The position numbers were made by a program, and so were the translations under genes. A stretch of DNA of 32,000 nt from the NCBI RefSeq assembly GCF_914768045.1, contig NZ_CAJZCD010000004.1, positions 95,918 to 127,917 on the forward strand, in the 5' to 3' direction. Shown piece after piece: positions 18,161-30,445 of the stretch. Every line of letters begins with the position of its first letter. Positions within the stretch are counted from its first letter, which is position 1. Source of the DNA: Snodgrassella communis. GTDB lineage: Bacteria; Pseudomonadota; Gammaproteobacteria; Burkholderiales; Neisseriaceae. Under the pieces are notes generated by a model. It saw only the letters and a program-made list of their open reading frames with translations, was not told the origin of the DNA and searched no databases.

Positions 18161-19774
18161 CTATCTTTCTTTTATCTGCTCCCAGCTTAAATCAAACTTG
18201 GCCAGATATTTTTTCAGCCTGTCGGCATCATTGGCGCGTTGTTTCTGTGCCCGCGATACAGCAAACAGATAACGGCCGGCCTCGGATAGCGTTCGGCTTT
18301 TACGGCATACTTCAATTACCTTTTCCAACTGATAGCGGTCGAATTCATCAATTGCAGCCGGAATCAGTGTATGAGAGGGCGTAGCCTGCTGCCAGTGTTG
18401 CTGTAGGCGCTGAATTTCATCTTCAACCTGTGTCAAAGTGATATTACCTTGCGTGGCCAGTGTAGCCATGCGGGTAATGGAAGCAGTGAGTTCGCGGAAA
18501 TTACCTGTCCATAGCGCGCTGGCCGAAGTAGCAAAGTTTACATAGCGGGTTCTGGATTGCTGATTAAAGCGTGGCATGGTGCCATATTCCTGTGCATAGC
18601 GCGCCAGCTCAAAATCAATATTCGGCTCAATATCCTCTTTGCGTTCTGCCAGCCCGGGTAATTGATAACTCCATAAATTAATCCGCGCGTATAAATCTTC
18701 CCTGAACGTACCACAGGCAATTGCCTGTTTTAAATCTTTATTAGTGCCGGCAATCAACTGAAAGCGGCTGGAGACCAGCTTATCCGAACCCAAAGGGTAA
18801 AAATGTTTTTCTTCGATAGCTTTTAACAAAATCGCCTGCTCATCCAGCCCCAGTTCACCGATTTCATCCAGAAACAAAAGGCCGTTATCAGCCTCTTTGA
18901 GTAACCCGCTTCTGGGCATAACTGCACCGGTATAAGCCCCTTTGCTATGACCAAACAAAGTTGACATGGCATTATCACCGCTCAGCGTAGCGCAGTTAAT
19001 TTCCACAAACTGGCCACTTATCTGATGCTTATTCAGCTTAAGCTGATAAATTTGCCGGGCAAGAAAGGATTTACCGGCGCCGGTAGGGCCACATAGCAGG
19101 ATGGGCGCATGGGAGCGGCTGGCTACCTGCTCTATTTCAGTAATCAATTGGTTATAGTGCTGGTTTCTGGTAGCAATGCCGGATTTAAGTAATTCAGTGG
19201 CTTGGCTGGCGTATTGCTGAAAGCGAGTCAGAATCTGGTCGTAACGATTCAGATTCAGGTCAATGATATTGATTTGTCCGCGGCAGCATAACTGTTGATG
19301 CGCTGCCGGCTCAGCTAACGCCATTTCATGCCGTGCTGCTCCTTTGGTCGGCGATAATTGCAGCAGTCTGGCCGGATAAAAGCGTGATTCTGCCAGCAGA
19401 AACCAGCAAATCTGCATAACGTGCGTGCCGGTAGTAATATTTAAATAATAATTTTCCTGTTCGTAATCAAATTGATAGCTTTTAGCTAAATCCAGTAAAC
19501 AGGTATACACCTCCTCAAAATCCCACGGGTCATGTATATGCACTGCTACCGGATTAACCTGTGTATCCGGGGCAATGGTTTTAATATCCTGAATAATTTC
19601 AGCCAGTAACTCATTATCATTGACCTGATAAAGCAGCTCAAAGCGGGATACCGGTAGTTCCGGATGATTACAGACATCAACTGTTGGCCGCCAGCGCCCC
19701 CAGCGTTTTCTGCCTTTACCGCGCTGGTCAAGCACATTACCTAAAAAGCCGAATACAACGTTTTTCCTGTTCAT
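18161..19774 (-). CDS. rtcR: Sigma54-dependent transcriptional activator RtcR (CARF-AAA+-HTH)
   Basis: 537 aa. Walker A GPTGAGKS, a GAFTGA-type sigma54 contact loop (GHSKGAYTGA), and an N-terminal ~185-aa non-receiver domain as in E. coli RtcR (532 aa). It is divergent from an rtcB operon. Confidence 0.9.
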   Translation of the reverse strand: MNRKNVVFGFLGNVLDQRGKGRKRWGRWRPTVDVCNHPELPVSRFELLYQVNDNELLAEIIQDIKTIAPDTQVNPVAVHIHDPWDFEEVYTCLLDLAKSYQFDYEQENYYLNITTGTHVMQICWFLLAESRFYPARLLQLSPTKGAARHEMALAEPAAHQQLCCRGQINIIDLNLNRYDQILTRFQQYASQATELLKSGIATRNQHYNQLITEIEQVASRSHAPILLCGPTGAGKSFLARQIYQLKLNKHQISGQFVEINCATLSGDNAMSTLFGHSKGAYTGAVMPRSGLLKEADNGLLFLDEIGELGLDEQAILLKAIEEKHFYPLGSDKLVSSRFQLIAGTNKDLKQAIACGTFREDLYARINLWSYQLPGLAERKEDIEPNIDFELARYAQEYGTMPRFNQQSRTRYVNFATSASALWTGNFRELTASITRMATLATQGNITLTQVEDEIQRLQQHWQQATPSHTLIPAAIDEFDRYQLEKVIEVCRKSRTLSEAGRYLFAVSRAQKQRANDADRLKKYLAKFDLSWEQIKER

Positions 19775-19934
19775 AGGATTGTTTTACTGGTTTATAAATA
19801 TAAATAAAATTATATATAAATTTATAAAATCATGCTGGATTTAATCAATAAAGATCTGGCAAATAATTTAAAAGTATAATTATTTAATTAAGAAAATTAA
19901 TAGTTTATAAAAAATATCTAAAAAATTTACCTGT

Positions 19935-19950
19935 TGGTACAGTAATTGCA
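19935..19950 (+). promoter_or_regulatory. Sigma54 (-24/-12) promoter of the tRNA-like/SPFH/rtcB operon
   Basis: TGGTACAGTAATTGCA compared with the consensus TGGCACG-n4-TTGCW. The GG and GC dinucleotides have the correct spacing. It lies 160 bp from the rtcR start and faces away from it. Confidence 0.8.
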
Positions 19951-20094
19951 ATAAAGCCTGTGTCTGCAATACATGCTGTCTGATATGGCAGTCAGGTGCA
20001 TAGCGAATGCTGCCGGATTCGCCGCAAGGCCAATTTATTTGCATTATCAACATGTATTCCTGAGTATGAAAGACACCTCCCTTTCACGGAGTAT

Positions 20095-20170
20095 TTTTGA
20101 ATAGCTCACTGGATAGAGCAATTGGCACCTAACCAATCTGTGACAGGTTCGATTCCTGTTTCAAAAACCA
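20095..20170 (+). ncRNA. tRNA-like RNA (complete 76-nt cloverleaf with encoded CCA, non-canonical A33) in the rtcB operon leader
   Basis: Acceptor TTTTGAA/TTCAAAA; T8 A9; D arm GCTC-ACTGGATA-GAGC; anticodon stem ATTGG/CCAAT with loop CACCTAA; variable loop CTGTG; T arm ACAGG-TTCGATT-CCTGT; discriminator A; CCA. It lies about 135 nt downstream of the predicted sigma54 start site and 275 nt upstream of the SPFH start. Confidence 0.8.
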
Positions 20171-20445
20171 CGTAGTAATACTTGTCGTATTAAGCAATAC
20201 CAGCCAGTAAATGGGAATAAGCAGAGTAGCAAAAGCTTAGGCACAGGAAAAACCGGTTAACCGAACAAACTCAACATCGTTGTTTTTGTCTGGGTAAAAA
20301 AACCGGATAGCAGGCAAAAAATTTATTAACCATAATCAGGCAGTAATCAGATTAAGGTTATCAATCTTTCCCCTGTTATTCCGTTACTTAATCCATTTGA
20401 TTGTGTTCATCCGATTTACTGGCTGCAATAGACTGGAGAATGAAT

Positions 20446-22020
20446 ATGTTAACCATAATCGATGTAAAAAAAGGTGAGCTGGCTGTTGTAAATAAACGGG
20501 ATGAAATCAACACCATCGTTAGCGCTGGCCGGCATACTTTCTGGGATCCCTTTTCAGCAATAACTTATTATCCGGTAGATTTGGCCGATACCGAAATCGA
20601 ACCGAACATCGCTGAAAAGCTACTTAATTTTTATCCGCAGCTAGTAGAAAAATATTGCCATATCGTTAACGTTGCCGATAATGAAATTGCCCTGCGCTAT
20701 GAAGAAAACATGCTGGTAGAGATTATCATGCCCTCTACCAAAGCACTGTACTGGCAGAGTTATAAGGCGCAATCGATTAAAAAAGTCACTTTGCAGCAGG
20801 GCTACCGCCTGCCGGATGAAATAGCGCTGGAACTGATACAGGCCAAAAATACCGCCAGATTAATTACCGGTATCGACAATATCAAACTGCATTATTTTGT
20901 AGATGAGCAGATTGGCACACTATTCGTAGATAACCAGTTTGTACAGATTATTCCGCCAAAATCCGTAATAGGCTTATGTGAATTCAAACATAAACTTGTA
21001 TTGGGAAAATTCAAATTACAGGACAACCGTATCGATGACCTGCTGGCGGCCACGATTGAGCAGAATGCACCAGAACAGATGCAGCAATACTGTGTACAGA
21101 TGCAGGTAGGCGCTAATCAGGCCGGATTACGCTTCGAGGATGACCTGCTGGTAGAAATCCTGCCGCCGGGAACAAAACGATTATATTGGCAGAATAACTG
21201 CAAGCAGCACATGCAGACTATTGAGCTGGCTGCCGGCTATCAGCTATCTGAGCAAATGGTACAGCAGTTATTACAGCCTAAATTGCGTCAAAAAGAAGTG
21301 ATTGGTGACAGCAGCGTGCTGATTGCACAGGTACCGGCCTATCATGTTGGCGTATTAAAAGTAAATGGTAAAGTGGAACAGCTACTGGATGCTGGCATCA
21401 CCGCTTACTGGCGCTTTAACCGCGAAATCAGCGTTGAAATCGTCGATACACGCTTGCAGACTGTCGAAATTTCCGGACAGGAAATTCTGACCCGTGACAA
21501 AGTCAATCTGCGTATCAATCTGGTAGCCAACTGGTGCTATACCGATGTATTAACTGCTTTTGCCAAAGCTGCCCAGCCGGTGGAACTCTTGTACCGGCAA
21601 TTGCAATTTGCCTTACGCGAAGCAATTGGTACCCGCACACTGGATGAATTACTGGAAAACAAAGATGTGATTGACGAAGTCATCAATGCGCATATGCAGG
21701 CGAACATGACAGGCTATGGAATTGAAACCATTAGCGTAGGCGTGAAAGACATAATTCTGCCGGGCGACATGAAAACCATACTGGCGCAGGTAGTGGAGGC
21801 TGAAAAAGCGGCACAGGCAAATGTAATCCGTCGCCGCGAAGAAACTTCCGCCACCCGCTCCCTGCTGAATACCGCCAGAGTAATGGAAAGCAATCCAGTG
21901 GCTTTGCGCCTGAAAGAAATGGAAACACTGGAACGAATTGCCGAACGCATCGATAAAATTTCAGTTATAGGCGGTCTGGATCAGTTATTACATGGTCTGA
22001 TCAACATCCCGGCGAAATAG
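20446..22020 (+). CDS. SPFH/band-7 (slipin-like) domain protein with a duplicated N-terminal module
   Basis: The C-terminal half has SPFH hallmarks (VPAYHVGVLKVNGKVEQLLDAGITAYW...VDTRLQTVEISGQEILTRDKVNLRINL...IETISVGVKDIILPGDMKTILAQVVEAEKAAQANVIRRREETSATRSL). GGAGA RBS 6 nt before ATG 20446. The track ORF starts at TTG 20401. Confidence 0.85.
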   Translation: MLTIIDVKKGELAVVNKRDEINTIVSAGRHTFWDPFSAITYYPVDLADTEIEPNIAEKLLNFYPQLVEKYCHIVNVADNEIALRYEENMLVEIIMPSTKALYWQSYKAQSIKKVTLQQGYRLPDEIALELIQAKNTARLITGIDNIKLHYFVDEQIGTLFVDNQFVQIIPPKSVIGLCEFKHKLVLGKFKLQDNRIDDLLAATIEQNAPEQMQQYCVQMQVGANQAGLRFEDDLLVEILPPGTKRLYWQNNCKQHMQTIELAAGYQLSEQMVQQLLQPKLRQKEVIGDSSVLIAQVPAYHVGVLKVNGKVEQLLDAGITAYWRFNREISVEIVDTRLQTVEISGQEILTRDKVNLRINLVANWCYTDVLTAFAKAAQPVELLYRQLQFALREAIGTRTLDELLENKDVIDEVINAHMQANMTGYGIETISVGVKDIILPGDMKTILAQVVEAEKAAQANVIRRREETSATRSLLNTARVMESNPVALRLKEMETLERIAERIDKISVIGGLDQLLHGLINIPAK

Positions 22021-22070
22021 CCGCTTAAACCATACTGATTGATTAAACAGAAAAATAATGAAAGATAAAA

Positions 22071-23297
22071 ATGCAAAAATATGAAGTATTAAAAGAAAAT
22101 AAAACCCGTCCGGTAAAAATGTGGACTAAAGGTGTACCCGTAGAAGATACTGCCAAAGCACAATTGCTGCAAACCGCAGAACTGCCCTTTATTTTTAAAC
22201 ATATTGCCGTAATGCCGGATGTACATCTGGGACGAGGCTCTACCATAGGTAGCGTGATTCCTACTACCGGCGCAGTTATTCCGGCTGCGGTTGGCGTAGA
22301 TATCGGCTGTGGCATGATGGCTGTGCAATTATCACTTACCGCACAGGATTTGCCGGAAGACTTAATGCCATTGCGGCAGGCGATTGAAAAAGCCGTACCA
22401 CATGGCTCTACCCCCGGTAATAAAAAATATGATAAAGGTAGCTGGCATAATCCGCCACCGATTGTACAAGCGTACTGGCAGCAGTTATTGCCCGGCTTTG
22501 AAAAACTCACCAGCAAATATCCGCGCTTTTTAAAAGCCAATAGCTTGCATCATCTGGGTACACTGGGCAGCGGTAATCACTTTATCGAAATTTGTCTGGA
22601 TGAAACTGATCAGGTATGGATTATGCTGCACAGCGGTTCACGTGGTATTGGCCATGCCATTGGCAAATATTTCAGTGAGCTGGCGCAAAAAGAAATGAAA
22701 AAATATTTTATTGATACCTATCTGCCCAATAACGATCTGGCGTATTTTGCCGAAGGCACCGAATATTGTCGTGATTATCTGCAAGCTGTGCATTGGGCGC
22801 AGGACTTTGCCCGCGTAAACCGTGAAGTGATGATGCACAACACCATTGCTGCATTACGCCAAGTAATTAATGTGCCATTTACCACGCATCTGCAAACCAT
22901 AAACTGCCATCATAACTACGTGCAGAAAGAACAGCACTTTGGTAAGAATGTATTTGTTACCCGTAAGGGTGCTGTTTCTGCACGCGAGGGCGAATTGGGG
23001 ATTATTCCGGGCTCAATGGGGGCAAAAAGTTATATCGTGCGCGGTTTGGGAAACACCGAAAGCTTTCATTCCTGTTCGCATGGGGCAGGGCGGGTAATGA
23101 GCCGCGCCGAAGCCAAAAGGAGATTTACCGTTGCCGACCAGATGCAGGCTACCGCCCATGTAGAGTGCCGTAAAGATGCAGAAGTCATCGACGAAATTCC
23201 ACTGGCGTACAAAGATATCGATGCCGTAATGCAGGCGCAGCAGGAGCTGGTGGAAATCAGGCATCAATTGCGTCAGGTTATCTGTGTCAAAGGCTGA
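22071..23297 (+). CDS. rtcB: RNA 3'-phosphate / 2',3'-cyclic phosphate ligase RtcB
   Basis: 408 aa, the same length as E. coli RtcB and near-collinear with it (VKMWTKGVPVE, PFIFKHIAVMPDVHLGRGSTIGSVIPT, AAVGVDIGCGM, GSGNHFIE, HSGSRGIGH, CHHNY, SHGAGR). Confidence 0.96.
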   Translation: MQKYEVLKENKTRPVKMWTKGVPVEDTAKAQLLQTAELPFIFKHIAVMPDVHLGRGSTIGSVIPTTGAVIPAAVGVDIGCGMMAVQLSLTAQDLPEDLMPLRQAIEKAVPHGSTPGNKKYDKGSWHNPPPIVQAYWQQLLPGFEKLTSKYPRFLKANSLHHLGTLGSGNHFIEICLDETDQVWIMLHSGSRGIGHAIGKYFSELAQKEMKKYFIDTYLPNNDLAYFAEGTEYCRDYLQAVHWAQDFARVNREVMMHNTIAALRQVINVPFTTHLQTINCHHNYVQKEQHFGKNVFVTRKGAVSAREGELGIIPGSMGAKSYIVRGLGNTESFHSCSHGAGRVMSRAEAKRRFTVADQMQATAHVECRKDAEVIDEIPLAYKDIDAVMQAQQELVEIRHQLRQVICVKG

Positions 23298-23368: not shown

Positions 23369-23396
23369 AAAAAAGGATGGCTATGCCATCTTTTTT
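23369..23396. terminator. Bidirectional hairpin terminator after rtcB (copy A of the bracketing hairpin)
   Basis: A6-GGATGGC-tat-GCCATC-T6. Stem 23375-23381 / 23385-23390. Confidence 0.8.
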
Positions 23397-23457
23397 ATAA
23401 TCAGAAGTAAATAGGACTGTAACTTAGCTGTTTGAAGCTTAATATAATCTTAAATCA

Positions 23458-24373
23458 ATGATTTATGTAAGAATAGATGTAAGCAAGAAAACGTTGGATT
23501 GTTGTGTGCTTGATGCTGACGATGAAGTTTATCTGAAAGTGCAGAATAGTCGGGCTGGTTATGATGAGTTTGTTGGCTCTGTATGATGATGTGCATGTAT
23601 GTCTGGAGGCTACTGGGGCATATTGGCAATCACTGGTTGATTTTCTGGGTGCTAATGATGTGCGCGTATCTGTAGAGAATCCGGCTAAGGTTCATTATTT
23701 TGCTAAAGCCAGTATATTGCGTATGAAGTCTGATAAGCGTGATGCGTTGTTAATAGCCGATTATTGCCAAGCTATGAAGCCAAGGTTGTATAGCCCATTA
23801 GATGAATCAGTGGCGGAATTAAGGCTATTGGTAAGCATGTATTATCGTTTAAGGAAACAAAGAGTATCTGAACGCGTGAAGCTGTTGGAGGTTCCGGCGC
23901 TGGTAAGGCATTTTGTTGAGTCCAATATAGCGCATTTCGATGCTCAGTTGTTGGAAGTGAAGAAGATGTTGGAAGCATTTTTTGAGGGTAACGCAGATTT
24001 AGACTGTAAGCCTAAGTTGTTGCAGACAATTCCGAGTATTGGTTTTAATTCCAGTGCGGTTTTATTATCGGTTTTGGCTTCTAGTAATGCGTTTGAATCT
24101 GCGAATCAGTTTGTAGCCTATCTTGGCTTGAATCCTCGCAAGATGGAATCTGGCACATCGTTGAAAGGTGCGGGGCGTGTATCTAAAGTTGGCAAGCCTG
24201 AGTATAGGGCTGCATTGTATATGCCCGCAGTGGTTGCTTATTCAAGGAATTTGTATCCTGATTTTGTAGCTAGGTTGCGGGAGAATGGTAAGATGCCGAA
24301 AGTTATTATTGTGGCACTTATGCGTAAGCTTGCGATTTATGCGTATACGGTTTATAAGACGAATTTTGTATAA
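23458..24373 (+). pseudogene. IS110-family (DEDD) transposase, interrupted by a frameshift
   Basis: The N-terminal part MIYVRIDVSKKTLDCCVLD...AGYDEFVGSV stops at 23584-23586. The rest continues in another frame, open from 23537 (LLALYDDVHVCLEATGAYWQS...KSDKRDALLIADY...). The IDVSK, LEATG and DKxDA motifs are typical of the IS110 family. A one-base indel between 23537 and 23586, or a sequencing error, separates the parts. Confidence 0.8.
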
Positions 24374-24504
24374 AGTATAAATAAGTGTTAATTTTGTAAG
24401 GTGGTTGGAAATTCCTAATCTGTTGTTATTTTGCAATTTTATCCAATATGTGTAAATTTTTTGTTGACACTTAAAATGTAAATACCCCAAACTTAGTACA
24501 AGGT

Positions 24505-25341
24505 TTAGGTAGAAAATAATGCTGCTTGTTTTAGAGTTTTATACTCAATCGGTGTCATATTATTTAATGCCTCATGCGGTCTTTCAGTGTTATAAAGGGT
24601 TAGCCATTCTTCAGTTATCTTTCTTGCTTGTTCCAGATTATTAAATAGATATAAATCCAATACTTCTGTGCGATAGGTACGATTAAATCGTTCAATATAC
24701 CCATTTTGATATGGGCTGCCTGGTTGAATATAATCTATAGTTATACCATGTGACTTTGCCCAATAAGTGAACGTATTTCCGGTGAATTCCGGTCCATTAT
24801 CTACTCGTATTTTTAGTGGATAACCATGATATTCAGCTAGTTTATCCAGGTAACGAGTAATCCTGCCAGCCGGTAAACTGACCGCAATATCAATGCCCAG
24901 TGCCTCACGATTAAAGTCGTCTATCACATTGAAAGTTCTGAAACGCCGTTGATTGCGACTGCTGTCACTCATAAAATCCATTGACCAGCATTCACCTTGT
25001 TTATTGGGTACTGATAGTTTTTCTGGGCTTCGTGGAGGAATCCATTGTTTACGCTTTACCCTCAGATTAAGTTTCAATTCACAATACACCCGATACACAC
25101 GTTTATGATTCCATTTATAGCCGAGCTTTCTGATGCGATTAAAACACTTGGGAAAGCCCCAGCGTAAATGTTTATCGGTAACAGCACTTAGTACTGACAT
25201 AATCACTGAATCATCCGGTAACTTGGGTTGATAATAGTAAGCACAGCGACTTAAGCCAACAATAGCGTAGCTCATAGCAATAGTAACAGAATGACCTTCT
25301 TGTAGTTGTACAGCCCAAGCTTTACGTGCCTTTGTGGGCAC
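24505..25341 (-). CDS. IS3-family transposase OrfB (DDE/rve catalytic domain), expressed as an OrfAB fusion by -1 frameshift
   Basis: WSMDFM, IRVDNGPEF and YNTERPHEAL supply the D, D and E of the rve domain. The frame is open back through the slippery site (KKALVPTKARKAW). Confidence 0.9.
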   Translation of the reverse strand: MPTKARKAWAVQLQEGHSVTIAMSYAIVGLSRCAYYYQPKLPDDSVIMSVLSAVTDKHLRWGFPKCFNRIRKLGYKWNHKRVYRVYCELKLNLRVKRKQWIPPRSPEKLSVPNKQGECWSMDFMSDSSRNQRRFRTFNVIDDFNREALGIDIAVSLPAGRITRYLDKLAEYHGYPLKIRVDNGPEFTGNTFTYWAKSHGITIDYIQPGSPYQNGYIERFNRTYRTEVLDLYLFNNLEQARKITEEWLTLYNTERPHEALNNMTPIEYKTLKQAALFST

Positions 25342-25598
25342 TAAAGCTTTTTTATGATTTCTTCCTGAAGCTGGGATTTTAAGCTCAGTTCGGCAAACAT
25401 CTGTTTAAGCTTACGGTTTTCAGCTTCCAGTTCCTTTAAACGTTTGATATCTGAAATTTCCATTCCGCTGTATTTTTCCCGCCATTTATAGAAAGTTGAA
25501 TTACCCATGCCATAATTACGACAGAGTTCCTTGACAGGAATACCAGCTTCAGCTTCTTTTAAAATAGCTACGATCTGATGTTCAGACATTTTTTTCAT
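25341..25598 (-). CDS. IS3-family transposase OrfA (HTH plus leucine zipper)
   Basis: 85 aa. IPVKELCRNYGMGNSTFYKWREKY is the HTH, and a coiled LKELEAENRKLKQMFAEL follows. It ends just after the A AAA AAG site. Confidence 0.9.
   Translation of the reverse strand: MKKMSEHQIVAILKEAEAGIPVKELCRNYGMGNSTFYKWREKYSGMEISDIKRLKELEAENRKLKQMFAELSLKSQLQEEIIKKL
25347..25353 (-). promoter_or_regulatory. Programmed -1 ribosomal frameshift heptamer A AAA AAG
   Basis: The minus strand reads atc atA AAA AAG ctt tag in the orfA frame. This is the canonical IS3-family slippery sequence. Confidence 0.8.
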
Positions 25599-27038: not shown

Positions 27039-28391
27039 TTATATTCCTATTTTTAAACCAAACCAAAAGACGCTATTGGTATCAATATTTAACGATCTTG
27101 TCTGATAATTTCTTGCAATTTGATAAAAATGTCTGAATTCAGAACTTGCATAGTATTTTAACTCATCATCTGATAGATGGTATGAAAATTTAGGTATTAA
27201 AACTGCAACTGAACCATTCATAATGTAACCTTTTTGTTTTCGCATTAATCTAGGCTTATAGGTCATATTAGGTGTTAAATAAACATCTTCACGATCAAGA
27301 TATTTAGCAACGGATAATTTTAATAGTTCAGTTTGATCAATATAAGCATCATAATTTTCTATATCTATAATTTTGTTACCTAAATCGCTAATATTTCTTG
27401 ATTTTAAAATTCGAACTTGTTCTGAATGATTTTTAATTAACGATGAATTTTTATTTGTAATCTGACGATCTCTGAAAACAGTAAACTTGTTAAATTTTAA
27501 CTTTTTAAATACCTTATCAAAATCTTGATCCCTATATATAACCCAATAAGGTAAAGCAGAGTCAAAAATATAATTTGCTTTCTGGTTTAATTTTAGTTCT
27601 TTAGGTAAAGAATATACATCAATATTTTTTTGATCATTTTCTTTCAAGTTACAAATTATATTGATTGTTTCTATTAATACACCCTTAAAACCTAATTCAC
27701 CAAAATCTAAAATAGATTGAATCTTGCTATTTGTTAACTTTTTTCTTGTTTCCTTATATTCTGGGGTGTTTAGTAAATTTTTGGGCATAACCAAAGAAAT
27801 AACGTCTGCACATTGTAACGATTTTTCTAGAAAAAAGGCCGAGAGATTTTTGATATTTTGGCTGTAATTTTCTATATCAAAAAAACTAAAGTCTGTTTTT
27901 TTGAGCTTTGTAAATGGTGGATTGCCAATAATTAAATCAAACCTTCTCTCTGGTTGATATAGCATAAAATCATCACAAATAAATTCGAGTTCAATATTAT
28001 TTGGTAATCGTTGTTGACTATAAATCAATTTTACCCATTCTAAAGTTTTTGGGTTAATATCGATTAACGTGACTTTTACTTTCGGGATATGTTTATATTT
28101 CTCAAACAAGAAAGGTAAGAAATTACCTGCACCAACTGATGGTTCACAAATATGTAGTTGAGATTTTTCTACAAAATCAGGTAAATAGTTAATGATTTCT
28201 TGAATAATAAAAGGATTTGTATAATAAGCAGAGTGATTTTCTCTTTCACTATTACTCAATTCAATAATACGAGAAAGTACTGTGGTATCTATAGTATTAT
28301 TTTTGAATTGCGATAAAAGGTAATTAGATAAACAATTCTCATCATTAAGTTGATGTTTTTTGATTAGTTGTAATATTTCTTTCTCTGTCAT
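27039..28391 (-). CDS. N6-adenine (amino) DNA methyltransferase, gamma-class motif order
   Basis: Motif I ICEPSVGAGNFL precedes motif IV DLIIGNPPFTK, as in TaqI/Eco57I-like methylase domains. 450 aa. There is a 1-nt gap to each neighbouring gene. Confidence 0.8.
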   Translation of the reverse strand: MTEKEILQLIKKHQLNDENCLSNYLLSQFKNNTIDTTVLSRIIELSNSERENHSAYYTNPFIIQEIINYLPDFVEKSQLHICEPSVGAGNFLPFLFEKYKHIPKVKVTLIDINPKTLEWVKLIYSQQRLPNNIELEFICDDFMLYQPERRFDLIIGNPPFTKLKKTDFSFFDIENYSQNIKNLSAFFLEKSLQCADVISLVMPKNLLNTPEYKETRKKLTNSKIQSILDFGELGFKGVLIETINIICNLKENDQKNIDVYSLPKELKLNQKANYIFDSALPYWVIYRDQDFDKVFKKLKFNKFTVFRDRQITNKNSSLIKNHSEQVRILKSRNISDLGNKIIDIENYDAYIDQTELLKLSVAKYLDREDVYLTPNMTYKPRLMRKQKGYIMNGSVAVLIPKFSYHLSDDELKYYASSEFRHFYQIARNYQTRSLNIDTNSVFWFGLKIGI

Positions 28392-28392
28392 A

Positions 28393-29547
28393 TCAAATTA
28401 CTTGCTTAATCTTTTCTGCAACTGTTTTAAATATTGCTGTTGGTACAGCTTCACCAATACTTTGACGAATATTCATCTCATTTTTCTTAGAAATTTTTTG
28501 TTTTTCTACTAAAGGTAAATTATTCAATGTTTCTAATGATATATCAATCCATTTAAACTGATCAGGAATAGTCATTAATTTCATTAATTCACGAATAGAA
28601 AAGACACGATCATCTATTGGATGCACAGTATTCTGACTTGCTAGTTGATCATTTCTAGTATGGATACACGGGGCAACTTTATCATAAAGTTGGCGAGTGT
28701 ATTTATCACCATTTTTGGATTTGTTAAGAATTATTTTACCATTTACAATTTTATGAGGACGTTTACTTAATTCGACATTATCAAAAGCACTTTGTCCTTG
28801 CTTAATATCTGTTATCCAAGCTCTCATATGTTCAGGGTAAACACGAAAACTATGATAAAAATCATTATTATCATATTCCCCCCAATCAAGAGATTTCATA
28901 TTGCCAATTACTTGCTCAAGAGTAACTTCATCACGTTCGTCAGGAAAAAATTGACTAGGTGAAAGTAATAAGTTTTTATCTACCCCAATTACTAAAGTTC
29001 TTGTGCGAGATGAGTTTGAACCATAGTTCTTAAAATTGATAATTCGGTGTTCAACCTGATAATTTGTTGCCAATTCAGCTAAAATTAAATCACCAATAGC
29101 AACCACTTCGCCTTGATTATTCATACAACCTGTTTTCCAAAATGCTTGGACATTTTCTAAAATAAAAAAACATGGACGAATATGCTTTATCATATTTACG
29201 CTTTCAACTACAAGACTGTTTCGCTCAATCTCATTTTCTTTTTTCTTATGGTTAGCCACGCTCATACCTTGGCAAGGAGGTGTTGCAATAACTACATCAA
29301 CACGATCATTACCTAATTTTTGCCAACGCTGGACTTCTTGATAAATGCGTTGTTTGGTTTCATCTTGTTTAATATCACCATTAATATATCCAGAATCAAA
29401 TCGACACTTTTTATTAATTTTTTGGATATTAATTCTTCTTTCAATTAACTCATTAGTTGCAATACATTCATAATCATTTAATTTAAACCCATAACATCCC
29501 ACTCCAGCAGATGAAAAAAGACTTATATATGTATGTTTTTTACTCAT
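28393..29547 (-). CDS. DNA cytosine-5 methyltransferase
   Basis: Motif I LFSSAGVGCYG, motif IV TPPCQGMS, motif VI ILENV, motif VIII SRTRTLVIG, and C-terminal IRELMKLMTIPDQF and QSIGEAVP. Confidence 0.9.
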   Translation of the reverse strand: MSKKHTYISLFSSAGVGCYGFKLNDYECIATNELIERRINIQKINKKCRFDSGYINGDIKQDETKQRIYQEVQRWQKLGNDRVDVVIATPPCQGMSVANHKKKENEIERNSLVVESVNMIKHIRPCFFILENVQAFWKTGCMNNQGEVVAIGDLILAELATNYQVEHRIINFKNYGSNSSRTRTLVIGVDKNLLLSPSQFFPDERDEVTLEQVIGNMKSLDWGEYDNNDFYHSFRVYPEHMRAWITDIKQGQSAFDNVELSKRPHKIVNGKIILNKSKNGDKYTRQLYDKVAPCIHTRNDQLASQNTVHPIDDRVFSIRELMKLMTIPDQFKWIDISLETLNNLPLVEKQKISKKNEMNIRQSIGEAVPTAIFKTVAEKIKQVI

Positions 29548-29604: not shown

Positions 29605-30445
29605 TTTAAATACCCCATAGTTAGTACAAAACTGACGTAGAAAATAATACTGCTTGTCTCAGGATTTTATACTCAATCGGCGTCATATTATTTAGTGCTT
29701 CATAAAGTCTTTCAGTATTATAAAACGTTAGCCATTCTTCGACTACTTTCCTTGCCTGTTCCAGATCATTAAATAGATATAAATCCAATACCCCTGTACG
29801 GTACGAACGGTTAAATCGTTCAATAAAGCCATTTTGATATGGGCTGCCGGGTTTGATGTACTCTATAGTTATACCATGTGATTTTGCCCAATTAGTAAAC
29901 GTGTTTCCGGTGAATTCCGGTCCATTATCTACTCGTATTTTTAGTGGATAACCATGATATTCGGCCAGTTTATCCAGATAACAGGTAATCCTGCCAGCTG
30001 GTAAACTGACCGCAATATCAATGCCTAGTGCCTCACGATTAAAGTCATCTATCACATTGAAAGTTCTAAATCTGCGTTGATTGCGACCGCTGTCACTCAT
30101 AAAATCCATTGACCAGCATCCATCTTGTTTATTCGGTACTGATAGCCTTTCCGGGCTTCGTGGAGGAATGCGTTGTTTATGCTTTACCCTGAGATTAAGC
30201 TTTAATTCACAATACACCCGATACACACGTTTATGATTCCATTTATAGCCGAGTTTTCTGATGCGATTAAAACATTTGGGAAGCCCCAGCGTAAATGCTA
30301 TAGCACTAGAGTACTGACATAATCACTGAATCATCCTGTAACCTGAGTTGATAATAGTAAGCACAGTGGCTTAGGCCAACAATAGAGCAACTCATTGTAA
30401 TGGTAACAGGATGACTTTTAAAGCAATAATAGTGGTACAGCCAAT
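29605..30445 (-). pseudogene. Decayed, 5'-truncated IS3-family remnant related to the 24477-25670 element
   Basis: Same orientation. The terminal repeat is degenerate (TTTAAATACCCCATAGTTAGTACA). The OrfB frame 29621-30226 is about 89 percent identical at protein level to copy 1 by my count. A 1-nt deletion (gggaaagcccc becomes gggaagcccc) and a ~8-nt deletion follow upstream. Homology ends near 30445, so orfA, the slippery site and the other terminal repeat are missing. Confidence 0.8.

Follow-up and report, generated by a model that had tools for sequence, protein, structure and literature searches.

Which task might a tRNA-shaped RNA element and an SPFH-domain protein fulfil when they are encoded between rtcR and rtcB, as is the case in Snodgrassella communis? 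The locus lies in a window of 32,000 nt, which is the whole stretch of DNA that was analysed (assembly GCF_914768045.1, contig NZ_CAJZCD010000004.1, positions 95,918 to 127,917 of the forward strand). In E. coli and Salmonella, tRNA fragments that carry a 2',3'-cyclic phosphate arise from RNA damage and act through the CARF domain of RtcR to switch on a sigma54 promoter. What we take to be an example with an SPFH gene and a tRNA-like RNA is found in P. aeruginosa and consists of PA4581 (rtcR), PA4581.1 ("tRNA-Arg4"), PA4582 (the SPFH protein PaFlo8), PA4583 (rtcB) and PA4585 (rtcA). Repair systems combining SPFH/Band-7 proteins with tRNA-like RNA were reportedly predicted by Burroughs and Aravind (Nucleic Acids Res 2016). 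Our analysis shows that the Snodgrassella locus is an RtcR/sigma54-type RNA-repair operon, in which about 500 nt of conserved, structured non-coding RNA would be followed by the SPFH gene and rtcB in the transcript. Since this type was predicted in 2016 and PA4581.1 has been annotated as a tRNA, the locus adds a member to a known type, of which it is an intact and ordinary representative.

The identities of the components are secure. The rtcR gene (18161-19774, - strand, 537 aa) was identified with NCBIfam and Pfam: its product reaches 768 bits with the NCBIfam RNA_repair_RtcR equivalog (cut-off 650) and consists of an N-terminal CARF-type RtcR domain (Pfam RtcR/CARF, residues 3-199), an AAA+ domain (Sigma54_activat, residues 201-367) and a C-terminal region. 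The rtcB gene (22071-23297, + strand, 408 aa) matches Pfam RtcB over its full length (E 4e-128) and is predicted to encode a 3'-phosphate/5'-hydroxyl RNA ligase. All elements listed in a first-pass annotation of this DNA were found, at coordinates that were exact or off by a few bases, and its parts list and gene order are correct. It had also reported that rtcA, archease and Ro/TROVE genes are absent; indeed, Pfam gave no match to any of the three among the larger ORFs of the window, which comprise most of those of at least 120 aa. A bidirectional terminator-like hairpin (GATGGC-TA-GCCATC) is located at 23370-23398 between an A-run and a T-run, about 75 nt past the rtcB stop codon. The terminator, with a G+C-rich hairpin of 6 bp (23376-23390), is present, but to call it strong was an overstatement. 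IS110 and IS3 elements are located downstream of rtcB.

The sigma54-type -24/-12 promoter (TGGTAC-N5-TTGCA; TGGTACAGTAATTGCA) is located at 19935-19950 on the + strand and deviates from the consensus TGGCAC-N5-TTGCW at one position. The window contains two matches to this motif and 1.89 are expected, and therefore the site is not significant when considered alone. However, among 81 related loci, 71 have a motif of the form TGGCAC-N5-[T/C][T/C/G]GC at the equivalent place, which is 116-200 nt before the first tRNA-like element, and the site in S. alvi is identical to that of the window. The motif is missing from most of the RtcR-less loci with tRNA arrays. Furthermore, an AT-rich palindrome with two 19-nt inverted arms, which are 84% complementary, lies at 19791-19828, i.e. 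107-144 nt upstream of the -24 element. TTATC-N7-GATAA-like repeats adjoin the rtcR start in other loci. We infer, and only infer, that the palindrome may be the upstream activating site of RtcR.

Between rtcR and the SPFH gene, the + strand has no ORF longer than 43 aa, and from the tRNA-like element to about position 20397 it has none that reaches 20 aa. Instead, three structured domains follow each other on the + strand. The leader (19960-20091) is predicted to form an outer stem around two hairpins (19960-20076), followed by the hairpin CUCC-CUUUCAC-GGAG (20077-20091). Its minimum free energy of -40.4 kcal/mol is not significant alone (z -1.4), and the fold has the same topology as the leader of a Pseudomonas locus (L034, z -3.0). 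In 26 relatives, 17 of the 25 leader pairs show compensatory changes, and 93.8% of the cells are paired vs 38-54% in slid controls. Of 80 loci, about 64 have a domain that is detected by the leader covariance model R2, which does not recognise the window leader (1.0 bit); judged by the predicted folds, the likeness of the window leader to the family appears to be only topological.

The tRNA-like element (20095-20170) was called by ARAGORN as tRNA-Arg(cct) and scores 52.8 bits with the Rfam tRNA model, vs 72.4 bits for the genuine tRNA-Phe of the window; our own covariance model R1 gives 76.3 bits. The cloverleaf is complete: its acceptor stem has 7 bp, its D-loop/T-loop elbow is conserved and the ACCA of its 3' end is encoded. 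Among 55 orthologous elements, 16 of the 21 pairs show compensatory changes and 92.9% of the cells are paired (33-44% in slid controls), which upholds the earlier expectation that the segment is conserved with compensatory changes. The trailer (20176-20425) comprises a small hairpin (20176-20192) and a long rod closed by pairing of 20201-20212 with 20414-20425. Its fold is stable in the window itself (-69.6 kcal/mol, z -3.8; none of 200 shuffles folds as well) and agrees well with that of the relatives, 19 of which display compensatory changes in 30 of 37 pairs, the long-range closing helix included. The motif GCAAUACCAGCCAG is located in the trailer at 20194, which is 252 nt before the SPFH ATG; the distance is 235-252 nt in the nine motif-bearing loci listed, and 51 of 81 loci carry the motif at most 520 nt upstream of the SPFH start (background: 90 matches in 1.67 Mb). 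Thus, the non-coding part is not confined to a tRNA shape of about 76 nt, as had been proposed: in the relatives, the leader and a trailer rod of about 225 nt covary as well, and the tRNA mimic is part of a larger structured 5' region of roughly 500 bases.

The SPFH ("slipin") gene (20446-22020, + strand, 524 aa) starts with the ATG at 20446, as indicated by a GGAG sequence 7 nt upstream and by the alignment of homologues. The protein contains two N-terminal beta/alpha modules (residues ~1-145 and 146-290), an SPFH domain (Pfam Band_7, residues 295-466, E 4e-31) and a long C-terminal helix. Both modules are 33% identical to each other (E 8e-20), and their number differs between relatives. A profile search of the PDB retrieved stomatin (E 8e-24, residues 332-518), and Foldseek aligned the AF2 model (pLDDT 84.6) with stomatin 16-mers over about 210 columns (E 1e-13). 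The protein is acidic (pI 5.4), no transmembrane segment or hairpin anchor was found in it, and Pfam detected no RNA-binding domain. Judged from its sequence, it is a soluble, stomatin-like "slipin".

How tightly these parts belong together was evident from the 80 closest species-level SPFH loci. As had been predicted, the SPFH genes adjoin rtcR and rtcB: a divergent rtcR is present in 68 loci, rtcB follows directly downstream in 67 and the tRNA-like element is found in 67. Moreover, the mimic keeps its place between promoter and SPFH gene from one proteobacterial order to the next. The idea that the SPFH protein and its RNA stand in place of RtcA has to be abandoned, because rtcA coexists with both in 23 of the 80 loci, for instance in Pseudomonas (L034); most operons of this class lack RtcA. 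Where RtcR and the sigma54 promoter are lacking, the loci retain rtcB and the SPFH gene along with mimic and leader. Brenneria (L017) has RlaP but no RtcB downstream of the RNA and the SPFH gene; the latter two therefore make up the constant core. Of 101 usable matches from a metagenome scan seeded on the RNA, 50 precede an SPFH gene, and the remaining 51, one of them ambiguous, are ordinary tRNAs or tmRNA. These data show that the RNA tracks the SPFH gene rather than RtcR or RtcB as such.

The simplest account of the element, a genuine decoding tRNA-Arg(CCU) that is by chance a neighbour of rtcR, is hardly credible. Its P. aeruginosa homologue PA4581.1 has been annotated as tRNA-Arg (PMC13637947). 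Besides the calls by ARAGORN and Rfam, the acceptor stem, A20, C35, U36, the 7-nt loop and the encoded ACCA make the window copy the most tRNA-like member of the family. However, its anticodon loop, CACCUAA, has A33 next to the "anticodon" CCU, and U33 is near-universal in tRNAs. The S. alvi element differs at four positions over 76 nt, which change the "anticodon" to CCA, replace U8 by A8 and remove the encoded CCA. Furthermore, the "anticodon" is unconstrained: only 32 of the 79 family members have a 7-nt loop, with 18 different "anticodons", and in 34 a tetraloop caps the arm (among them 11 UUCG and 14 GNRA). The order of promoter, mimic and SPFH gene, which is conserved across orders, also argues against chance. 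Because of A33, the altered S. alvi "anticodon" and the tetraloops, the mimic is non-decoding. A different role for the same loop would be that of a sentinel or decoy, aimed at ribotoxins that attack anticodon loops. If it served as bait, the mimic would be cleaved and its 5' half, carrying a 2',3'-cyclic phosphate, would feed the CARF domain of RtcR in a positive feedback; if it inhibited the nuclease competitively, it would titrate the enzyme away. G18, G19 and the T-loop are invariant, and hypervariability in the mimic is confined to the anticodon loop, which could reflect an arms race. Moreover, tRNA-Met-like CAU loops recur in 8 of the 32 seven-nucleotide loops, in several Rhodocyclales genera, and the window mimic has a 7-nt loop. 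Still, we consider this role improbable. With a tetraloop, mostly UUCG or GNRA, as in 34 of the 79 members, an anticodon loop cannot be imitated, so that the "decoy or sensor" function suggested by the first-pass annotation fits poorly, and half of the 7-nt loops (16 of 32) lack U33. In Enterobacterales relatives, only the T-arm hairpin remains and the anticodon arm is altogether lost; the full cloverleaf is therefore dispensable in some lineages. In addition, Salmonella YrlA is not cleaved by the relevant nuclease (PMC7790460), and a bait that is made only once RtcR is active cannot be the primary sensor.

The reading that we prefer, to which we give about an even chance, is that the mimic and an SPFH ring form a trans-acting ribonucleoprotein platform for repair by RtcB. 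Since the mimic keeps the elbow, the T arm and the acceptor stem, which would be needed by a reader of tRNA shape, and leaves the anticodon loop free, it is probably recognised and excised by tRNA-processing enzymes such as RNase P. Once released, the mimic, with or without the flanking domains, would be a trans-acting RNA cofactor or adaptor. The SPFH protein, whose scaffold role we purely infer, probably assembles into a ring or cage like that of stomatin, and ring and RNA would gather or shield broken tRNA-shaped substrates for RtcB, and in relatives also serve RlaP and RtcA. The conserved neighbours, the covariation, the non-decoding mimic, the coupling of RNA and SPFH gene and the soluble protein, whose closest match is the ring-forming stomatin, count for the platform. 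So do the accumulation of PA4581.1, at roughly half the abundance of canonical tRNAs (PMC13637947), and the joint derepression of a slipin gene, rtcB and a tRNA operon under translation stress in Anabaena, where the slipin is not necessarily of this clade (PMC10272220). The acidic SPFH protein without a detected RNA-binding domain, the reduction to a T-arm hairpin in Enterobacterales and the failure of R2 on the window leader count against it. The first-pass annotation held that nothing had been tested in such a system, which is slightly outdated: qRT-PCR revealed that PA4581.1 does not rise upon Rtc protein induction (PMC13637947), and deletion of PaFlo8 caused no phenotype in standard assays, RNA damage not being among them (PMC13086221). 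Both results also weigh against the platform. If PA4581.1 were simply co-transcribed from the sigma54 promoter, its level would not be expected to stay flat, but a stable RNA at a basal synthesis rate could explain this.

Alternatively, the 500-nt region may act in cis as a 5' untranslated leader, which we consider unlikely. The tRNA-like element would then signal processing or stability (RNase P, RNase E) or act as a sensor coupling the translation of the SPFH gene and rtcB to the state of the tRNA-processing or repair machinery, and the trailer rod would determine how accessible the ribosome-binding site is. Indeed, the RNA always directly precedes the SPFH gene at near-constant spacing (235-300 nt from mimic or trailer motif to start codon in most loci), and no separate RNA promoter or terminator is evident. 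The closing helix of the trailer leaves about 9 nt to the GGAG and 20 nt to the ATG; its end beside the ribosome-binding site suits a cis-regulatory role equally well. Moreover, the two tRNA-like units of Pseudomonas are 0-2 nt apart and most copies lack an encoded CCA, which makes the release of two mature tRNA-like molecules awkward. However, the GGAG lies outside the closing helix, leader, mimic and trailer are closed independent folds with strong covariation beyond the needs of a processing signal, and PA4581.1 builds up as a stable RNA would, independently of Rtc protein levels (PMC13637947). It is decidedly improbable that the SPFH protein is unrelated to the RNA, which would be an independent passenger, and organises or restrains a protease or membrane process under RtcB-inducing stress like HflK/C or stomatin, e.g. 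for the disposal of truncated proteins from damaged RNA. To our knowledge, all characterised SPFH proteins are protein or membrane scaffolds; the nearest structures are stomatin, HflK/C, erlin and prohibitin, and the acidic protein has no recognisable RNA-binding module. One locus (L073) even encodes an FtsH-like AAA plus M41 protease immediately 3' of rtcB. However, this gene is limited to 1 of the 80 loci, the protein lacks a membrane anchor, and RNA and SPFH gene are tightly coupled: all genuine matches of the RNA-seeded scan have an SPFH gene behind them, and the coupling is kept in RtcR-less loci and in one RtcB-less locus.

The locus can be compared with several known systems. Like the eukaryotic vault (MVP, vault RNA and the TROVE protein TEP1), the locus combines its protein with a small structured RNA. 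MVP has the same domain order, with tandem N-terminal beta-rich modules, an SPFH-like shoulder and a long helix, and is the only PDB protein that Foldseek aligned along the whole SPFH model (650-690 columns, E 1e-11 to 1e-8). The N-terminal 300 residues alone did not match the MVP repeats (R1-R7 rank 25th, E 0.3, probability 0.10); on these models, the likeness is architectural only, and homology is supported only for the SPFH and helix part. The cages of stomatin, HflK/C, erlin and prohibitin share the SPFH domain and the long C-terminal helix, whereas the Snodgrassella protein has no membrane anchor, has extra N-terminal beta/alpha modules of variable copy number and is encoded with an RNA ligase and a structured RNA instead of an NfeD or FtsH partner. 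The E. coli rtcR-rtcBA locus has an orthologous RtcR (NCBIfam equivalog) and RtcB, divergent orientation and a sigma54 promoter. However, rtcA is present, the SPFH gene is absent and the 188 nt between rtcR and rtcB of E. coli K-12 gave no match to the mimic model.

In Salmonella, the rsr-yrlBA-rtcBA operon encodes Ro60 with the Y RNAs YrlA and YrlB (Chen et al. 2014, PMC4201824; Hughes et al. 2020, PMC7790460). It is likewise under RtcR/sigma54 control and has a ring-forming protein and an RNA with a tRNA-like module before rtcB; the role of Ro with the tRNA-like YrlA would be paralleled by the platform. Hughes et al. described the anatomy of the tRNA-like domain and speculated on it (PMC7790460). 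The protein is Ro/TROVE in Salmonella and SPFH in Snodgrassella, and the RNA module is closed by a Ro-binding stem in the former and is a linear cloverleaf flanked by domains in the latter. The Rfam YrlA model has no match in the window and a partial, sub-threshold match in Pseudomonas (33.6 bits, threshold 69). In comparison with the Pseudomonas system, the Snodgrassella locus is AT-rich, its leader is too diverged for the family model to detect, and RlaP, RtcA and a 192-aa ORF are missing. It has one tRNA-like unit instead of two in tandem and two N-terminal SPFH modules instead of one. However, the gene order, the protein families, the promoter motif and the tRNA-like element between rtcR and the SPFH gene are the same in both genera, and the SPFH proteins are 56-57% identical over the shared region.

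All elements that the first-pass annotation had proposed for the locus, namely rtcR, a promoter site, a tRNA shape, an SPFH gene, rtcB and a terminal hairpin, are present in the window. The rtcR gene (18161-19774, - strand) encodes a protein of 537 aa, which scores 768 bits with the NCBIfam RtcR equivalog (cut-off 650) and carries the Pfam RtcR domain of the CARF type at its N-terminus, followed by the sigma54-interaction AAA+ domain Sigma54_activat. A sigma54-type -24/-12 site (TGGTACAGTAATTGCA; TGGTAC-N5-TTGCA) with one mismatch from the consensus is located at 19935-19950 (+ strand), 161 nt upstream of the rtcR start codon, divergently oriented and in front of the repair genes; with two sigma54-motif matches in the window versus 1.89 expected, a single site is at chance level. 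The site is followed by the tRNA-like element (20095-20170, + strand), hereafter called the mimic, which ARAGORN and the Rfam tRNA model call as Arg with the anticodon CCU. Its Rfam tRNA score is 52.8 bits versus 72.4 bits for the true tRNA-Phe of the window. The SPFH gene (20446-22020, + strand; 524 aa, Band_7/SPFH domain at residues 295-466) starts with the ATG at 20446, 7 nt upstream of which a GGAG is found. The rtcB gene (22071-23297, + strand; 408 aa) gives a full-length match to Pfam RtcB (E 4e-128), and a 6-bp hairpin between an A-run and a T-run lies downstream of it (23370-23398). The locus thus has the RtcR, the sigma54-type site and the RtcB of an rtc repair operon and lacks the RtcA. 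The reported absence of rtcA, archease and Ro agrees with a Pfam scan of the window's other sizeable ORFs, in which no RtcA (RTC domain), archease or Ro/TROVE domain was found. The best protein match of the window belongs to Snodgrassella communis and is 99% identical.

Some further features of the promoter region and of the flanks were observed. A 38-bp AT-rich palindrome (19791-19828) between the rtcR start and the -24/-12 site sits where an activator binding site is expected and is a candidate for such a site; the GC-rich relatives carry TTATC-N7-GATAA-like repeats in its place. The search for a sigma70 promoter for the RNA yielded only weak matches (9/12) in this AT-rich DNA, fewer than in shuffled sequence. 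About 10 kb upstream of the rtc locus, a full-length match to the C4 antisense RNA (Rfam RF01695; 8739-8824, - strand; 55.7 bits versus a gathering score of 45), which we take to be the immunity RNA of P1/P7-type phages, suggests a prophage remnant. Directly past the rtcB terminator, insertion sequences are found (23466-25598 and 29621-30226), with an IS110-family transposase (23561-24373, whose start probably lies earlier), an IS3-family orfA/orfB pair (24505-25598, - strand) and an IS3-type integrase fragment (29621-30226). Between them, genes for an Eco57I-like methylase and a C5 cytosine methylase are located (27039-29547). In S. alvi, hsdM and hsdS follow rtcB at the same position as the IS and methylase genes of the window. 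Given the methylases in the one species and hsdM/hsdS in the other, this flank appears to be a variable island rich in restriction-modification genes. Carriage of the module by phages was also considered and rejected, as the single IMG/VR contig with a relative is cut at the gene.

The conservation of the arrangement was assessed in the 80 closest SPFH loci (L-numbers below), which were obtained by a degenerate-pattern scan over one genome per species. RtcR, RtcB and the tRNA-like element were located by tblastn and ARAGORN, the latter element also by a covariance model built from 55 elements. The relatives of the SPFH gene span Neisseriaceae, Orbaceae, Burkholderiales, Rhodocyclales, Pseudomonas and Enterobacterales. 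A divergent rtcR is present in 68/80 loci and rtcB lies directly downstream of the SPFH gene in 67/80, so that the SPFH gene adjoins rtcB and rtcR in other genomes as well, as the first-pass annotation had required. In 67/80 loci as well, the 700 nt upstream of the SPFH gene contain one or more tRNA-like elements. All three components, rtcR, tRNA-like element and rtcB, occur together in 49/80; the loci that deviate are those at contig ends, those of Enterobacterales and a variant lacking RtcR. A -24/-12 motif, mostly TGGCACG-N4-TCGC, is located 116-200 nt upstream of the first tRNA-like unit in 71/81 loci. It is absent from most loci without RtcR (L060, L061, L063, L065, L070, L073 and L080), yet it is kept in L046 and L055, for which no RtcR hit was obtained.

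The mimic is conserved with compensatory changes, as had been anticipated, and is present in 67 of the 80 loci. For the cloverleaf analysis, 55 elements were aligned in register and the 3' partners were slid by one to three columns as a control. In total, 92.9% of the cloverleaf cells are paired versus 33-44% in the slid controls. Changes on both sides occur at 16 of the 21 cloverleaf pairs, with covariation at all five pairs of the anticodon stem and strong covariation at the inner acceptor pairs. The D stem, G18-G19 and the T-loop GTTCRANYC show little or no variation among the 55 elements, which indicates that the elbow of the tRNA is preserved. The anticodon loop is unconstrained: a 7-nt loop is found in only 32/79 elements, U33 in only 16 of those 32, and 18 different "anticodons" occur among the elements with a 7-nt loop. 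Furthermore, the arm ends in a tetraloop in 34/79 elements (11 UUCG, 14 GNRA). The window copy has the loop C-A-C-C-U-A-A with A33 and the "anticodon" CCU, and the S. alvi orthologue differs from it at few positions, having CCA for CCU, A8 and no encoded CCA. A genuine decoding tRNA-Arg was therefore rejected on account of A33, the change from CCU to CCA in S. alvi and the unconstrained loop in the whole family. Judged from these sequence features, the element is a putative shape mimic rather than a decoder. The window copy is nevertheless unusually tRNA-like, with an acceptor stem of 7 bp, with A20 and C35 and with the ACCA encoded. In many relatives, the outer two to three acceptor pairs are unpaired, and most of them lack an encoded CCA.

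The number and completeness of the tRNA-like units vary between lineages. In Pseudomonas, the units occur as tandem pairs, which are 0-2 nt apart or overlap slightly; the loci with tandem units are L024, L026, L027, L033, L034, L035, L037-L039, L044, L047 and L048. In many Betaproteobacteria, a lone T-arm hairpin precedes the full unit. Ten Enterobacterales loci (L007, L017, L020, L030, L045, L068, L069, L071, L075 and L077) have no full cloverleaf; they carry a lone T-arm hairpin (GGGTTCGAnTCCC) after a leader-like region, and the motif GCAGTACCCGG of the trailer RNA described below is still present in several of them. The mimic appears to have been reduced to its T-arm in the Enterobacterales. 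In the Pseudomonas locus L034, the Rfam model of YrlA, the Y RNA partner of Ro in Salmonella, gave a partial match below the threshold (33.6 bits versus 69), which arises at the junction of the T arm of unit 1 with the D arm of unit 2. YrlA was rejected as an identity of the Pseudomonas RNA, since the match is most simply read as a by-product of tRNA similarity. In the window, the YrlA model gave no match at E values up to 10, and the scanned ORFs of the window include no TROVE gene.

The RNA part of the module had been equated with the tRNA shape. This shape is indeed present, but the RNA is larger, since the relatives also possess a covarying leader and a trailer of about 225 nt. The leader (candidate copy in the window at 19960-20091) is in the relatives a domain of about 120 nt between promoter and mimic, in which an outer stem encloses two hairpins, the longer one with a conserved bulge of 2 nt. 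RNAalifold predicted 25 pairs from 26 sequences, 17 of which show compensatory change, and 93.8% of the leader cells are paired versus 38-54% in the slid controls. A covariance model of the leader scores 20-116 bits in about 64/80 loci, including loci without RtcR or promoter, and this retention identifies the leader as an RNA feature and not a DNA feature. The model failed to detect a leader in the window (1.0 bit with filters off), in S. alvi and in Gilliamella. The minimum free energy fold of the window leader has the same topology as that of Pseudomonas, with a z score of only -1.4, and short motifs are common to the window and Pseudomonas leaders (hairpin-CAGGUGCAUAG ... ACAUGUAUUCC). Because the family model fails on it, the window copy is only a candidate homologue, on the basis of topology and short motifs.

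The trailer (20176-20425) lies between the mimic and the SPFH start codon and has in the relatives a small hairpin and, after it, a rod of about 225 nt. In 19 relatives, 30 of 37 predicted pairs show compensatory change and 92.1% of the trailer cells are paired versus 32-46% in the slid controls. For both leader and trailer, structure prediction and pair counting used one set of alignments, so that the contrast to the controls is inflated; the compensatory pair types are, by their number, the stronger evidence. The predicted trailer pairs include a long-range closing helix, which is formed in the window by 20201-20212 and 20414-20425. The window trailer folds with a z score of -3.8, and 0/200 shuffled sequences fold as well. 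Moreover, the trailer motif GCAAUACCAGCCAG is located 252 nt before the SPFH ATG in the window and at a distance of 235-252 nt in the nine motif-bearing loci listed; in 51/81 loci, it is found no more than 520 nt upstream of the SPFH start, the background being 90 hits in 1.67 Mb. No + strand ORF of more than 43 aa was found between rtcR and the SPFH gene, and no + strand ORF of at least 20 aa was found in the trailer before about 20397. Leader, mimic and trailer were also compared with Rfam, in which no family except the tRNA model matched in the window.

Several observations indicate that the RNA is coupled to the SPFH gene. A metagenome scan was seeded on the RNA alone and required a T-arm and, 25-55 nt further on, the trailer motif. 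Downstream sequence was sufficient for 101 hits, of which 50 precede an SPFH gene; the remaining 51 are ordinary tRNAs or tmRNA hit by chance, apart from one ambiguous short contig. The rtcR-rtcBA locus of E. coli K-12, which is devoid of an SPFH gene, has an intergenic region of 188 nt without a match to the mimic model. The enzymes are less constant. RtcA is encoded within 5 kb in only 23/80 loci and therefore does not define this sub-class, and the nucleotidyltransferase RlaP is encoded in about 23/80. The suggestion that the SPFH protein substitutes for RtcA does not hold, because both proteins coexist in these 23 loci; RtcA is an optional addition, which is not replaced by the SPFH protein. 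In the Brenneria locus L017 (4905-6975), a gene for RlaP (PF10127) comes after rtcR, the RNA and the SPFH gene, and neither RtcB nor RtcA is encoded. This layout implies that the core of SPFH gene and RNA can be paired with a nucleotidyltransferase instead of a ligase. Taken together, the RNA-seeded scan, the E. coli locus, the Brenneria locus and the sparse occurrence of RtcA and RlaP point to a constant core of RNA and SPFH gene with varying enzymes.

Other deviating loci were noted. L018, L021 and L068 have rtcR and the SPFH gene and gave no RtcB hit. In some Pseudomonas loci only (L034:7406-7984, L026, L027 and L039), an ORF of 192 aa without a Pfam match lies between rtcB and the RlaP gene; it is unrelated to an ORF of 191 aa at the same position in L073 (BLASTP E 3.6). 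L073 also encodes a 646-aa FtsH-like protein (AAA and Peptidase_M41 domains; L073:7384-9324) just after rtcB. SPFH proteins classically regulate FtsH. A general link to an FtsH-like protease was rejected, as this gene is confined to L073 and a search of the other 79 loci gave no homologue. L073 belongs to a variant without RtcR and without the sigma54 motif, together with L060, L061, L063, L070 and, probably, L065 and L080, which are on cut contigs. Most of those with enough upstream sequence show the order of an array of four to eight ordinary tRNA genes, an HNH endonuclease gene, leader, mimic, trailer, SPFH gene and rtcB; in L070, the HNH gene is preceded by only one tRNA gene (tRNA-Glu), and L080 has neither an array nor an HNH hit. 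The variant resembles the stress-induced tRNA operon and the rtcB/slipin regulon of Anabaena (PMC10272220). In this cyanobacterium, which has no RtcR, removal of the repressor TrcR increases expression of the slipin gene alr0740 by 42-fold and of rtcB by 77-fold, together with the tRNA operon (PMC10272220).

The SPFH protein has the stomatin-type layout of a Band_7 domain followed by a C-terminal helix. A sequence profile matches stomatin at residues 332-518 (E 8e-24). In the AlphaFold model (pLDDT 84.6), a beta/alpha module occurs twice and is followed by another beta unit, by the SPFH domain and by a helix about 65 residues long. Foldseek placed the stomatin 16-mer structures first (E 1e-13), followed by HflK/C, erlin and prohibitin. 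No transmembrane segment was predicted, the maximal Kyte-Doolittle mean over 19 residues being 1.15, and the protein is therefore probably soluble. It is acidic (pI 5.4) except for the C-terminal helix, which is basic. The two N-terminal modules share 33% identity (E 8e-20). The major vault protein is the only Foldseek hit along the whole model (about 650 columns). When the N-terminal 300 aa were modelled alone (pLDDT 89.7), no convincing match was found in the PDB; the repeats R1-R7 of the major vault protein ranked 25th (E 0.3), and homology of the modules to these repeats was rejected. The vault likeness of the predicted structure is thus architectural only. The number of N-terminal modules varies between relatives, with one copy in P. 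aeruginosa (P0094; 381 aa), two in the window protein (524 aa), three in P0066 and P0056 (724-744 aa) and about four half-modules in P0048 (591 aa). The SPFH domain and the C-terminal helix are highly conserved.

The copy of P. aeruginosa has been described in part. Its SPFH gene PA4582 was listed as a conserved unknown of the rtc operon (PMC8619066), and the same gene, named PaFlo8 (PA14_60630), was reported to be embedded in the rtc locus (PMC13086221). Deletion of PaFlo8 caused no phenotype in growth, pigment, motility, biofilm or oxidative stress; RNA damage was not assayed (PMC13086221). The counterpart of the mimic, PA4581.1, lies between rtcR and the rtc cluster, is annotated as "tRNA-Arg4", lacks the CCA and has G20 (PMC13637947, 2026). 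The RNA accumulates to roughly half the amount of canonical tRNAs, and its level does not change in a strain whose Rtc proteins are strongly induced (PMC13637947). RtcR itself responds to fragments of damaged tRNA and drives a sigma54 promoter (PMC7790460).

The analysis yields covariation-backed structures for three RNA domains and evidence of a dispensable anticodon loop, which narrow the plausible mechanisms to shape mimicry of the elbow and the acceptor stem. We infer a platform as the preferred mechanism, in which the mimic would be recognised through the elbow and the acceptor stem and cut out by tRNA-processing enzymes, and the excised mimic together with an SPFH ring or cage would form an RNP platform for RtcB. 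The acidic nature of the SPFH protein argues against such a platform, as does the lack of co-induction of the RNA and the Rtc proteins in strain PAO1. A 5' region that acts in cis as a leader would fit the anatomy equally well. The tetraloops in the family, and the absence of the anticodon arm from the Enterobacterales, weaken the decoy or sentinel function that had been considered for the mimic. The initial interpretation stands in outline, with corrections regarding RtcA, the extent of the RNA and the decoy idea.

A bolder extension of the RNP platform, which we consider rather improbable, is that the 5' region of about 500 nt is a single modular trans-acting RNA and the partner or cargo of a soluble stomatin-like cage, the two forming a vault-like RNP compartment for repair by RtcB. 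The RNA would then consist of the leader junction, one or two mimics and the 225-nt rod and would stand outside the Rfam families. Inside the compartment, RtcB, joined by RlaP and RtcA in the relatives, would repair broken tRNA-shaped RNAs, and the cage size would depend on the number of N-terminal SPFH modules.

RtcB operons are induced by translation-targeting antibiotics, DNA damage and ribotoxins, and, to our knowledge, little is understood of the accessory factors that guide RNA repair in bacteria. The operon of SPFH gene and RNA is widespread in Proteobacteria, including P. aeruginosa and Burkholderia. The Snodgrassella copy is a minimal form with only the RNA, the SPFH gene and rtcB, and Snodgrassella is a genetically manipulable symbiont of the bee gut. 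Should the SPFH protein assemble with the structured RNA into a particle, this would be the first case of a soluble SPFH assembly with a link to RNA, functionally comparable to the Ro/Y-RNA particle and to vaults. The type of system has already been predicted in the literature and the P. aeruginosa copy has already been noticed; details that may be new are the leader and the trailer, the survey of the anticodon loops and the variable number of N-terminal modules. The abstract of Burroughs and Aravind from 2016 reportedly proposes "SPFH/Band-7 modules" with "a novel tRNA-like molecule" as scaffolds that would serve RNA-repair systems as cofactors, a prediction to which the first-pass annotation also refers. 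Like the class reportedly described there, the window locus has an SPFH gene next to rtcB and a structured tRNA-like RNA upstream, and the proposed platform of SPFH protein and RNA would parallel that of Ro with YrlA.
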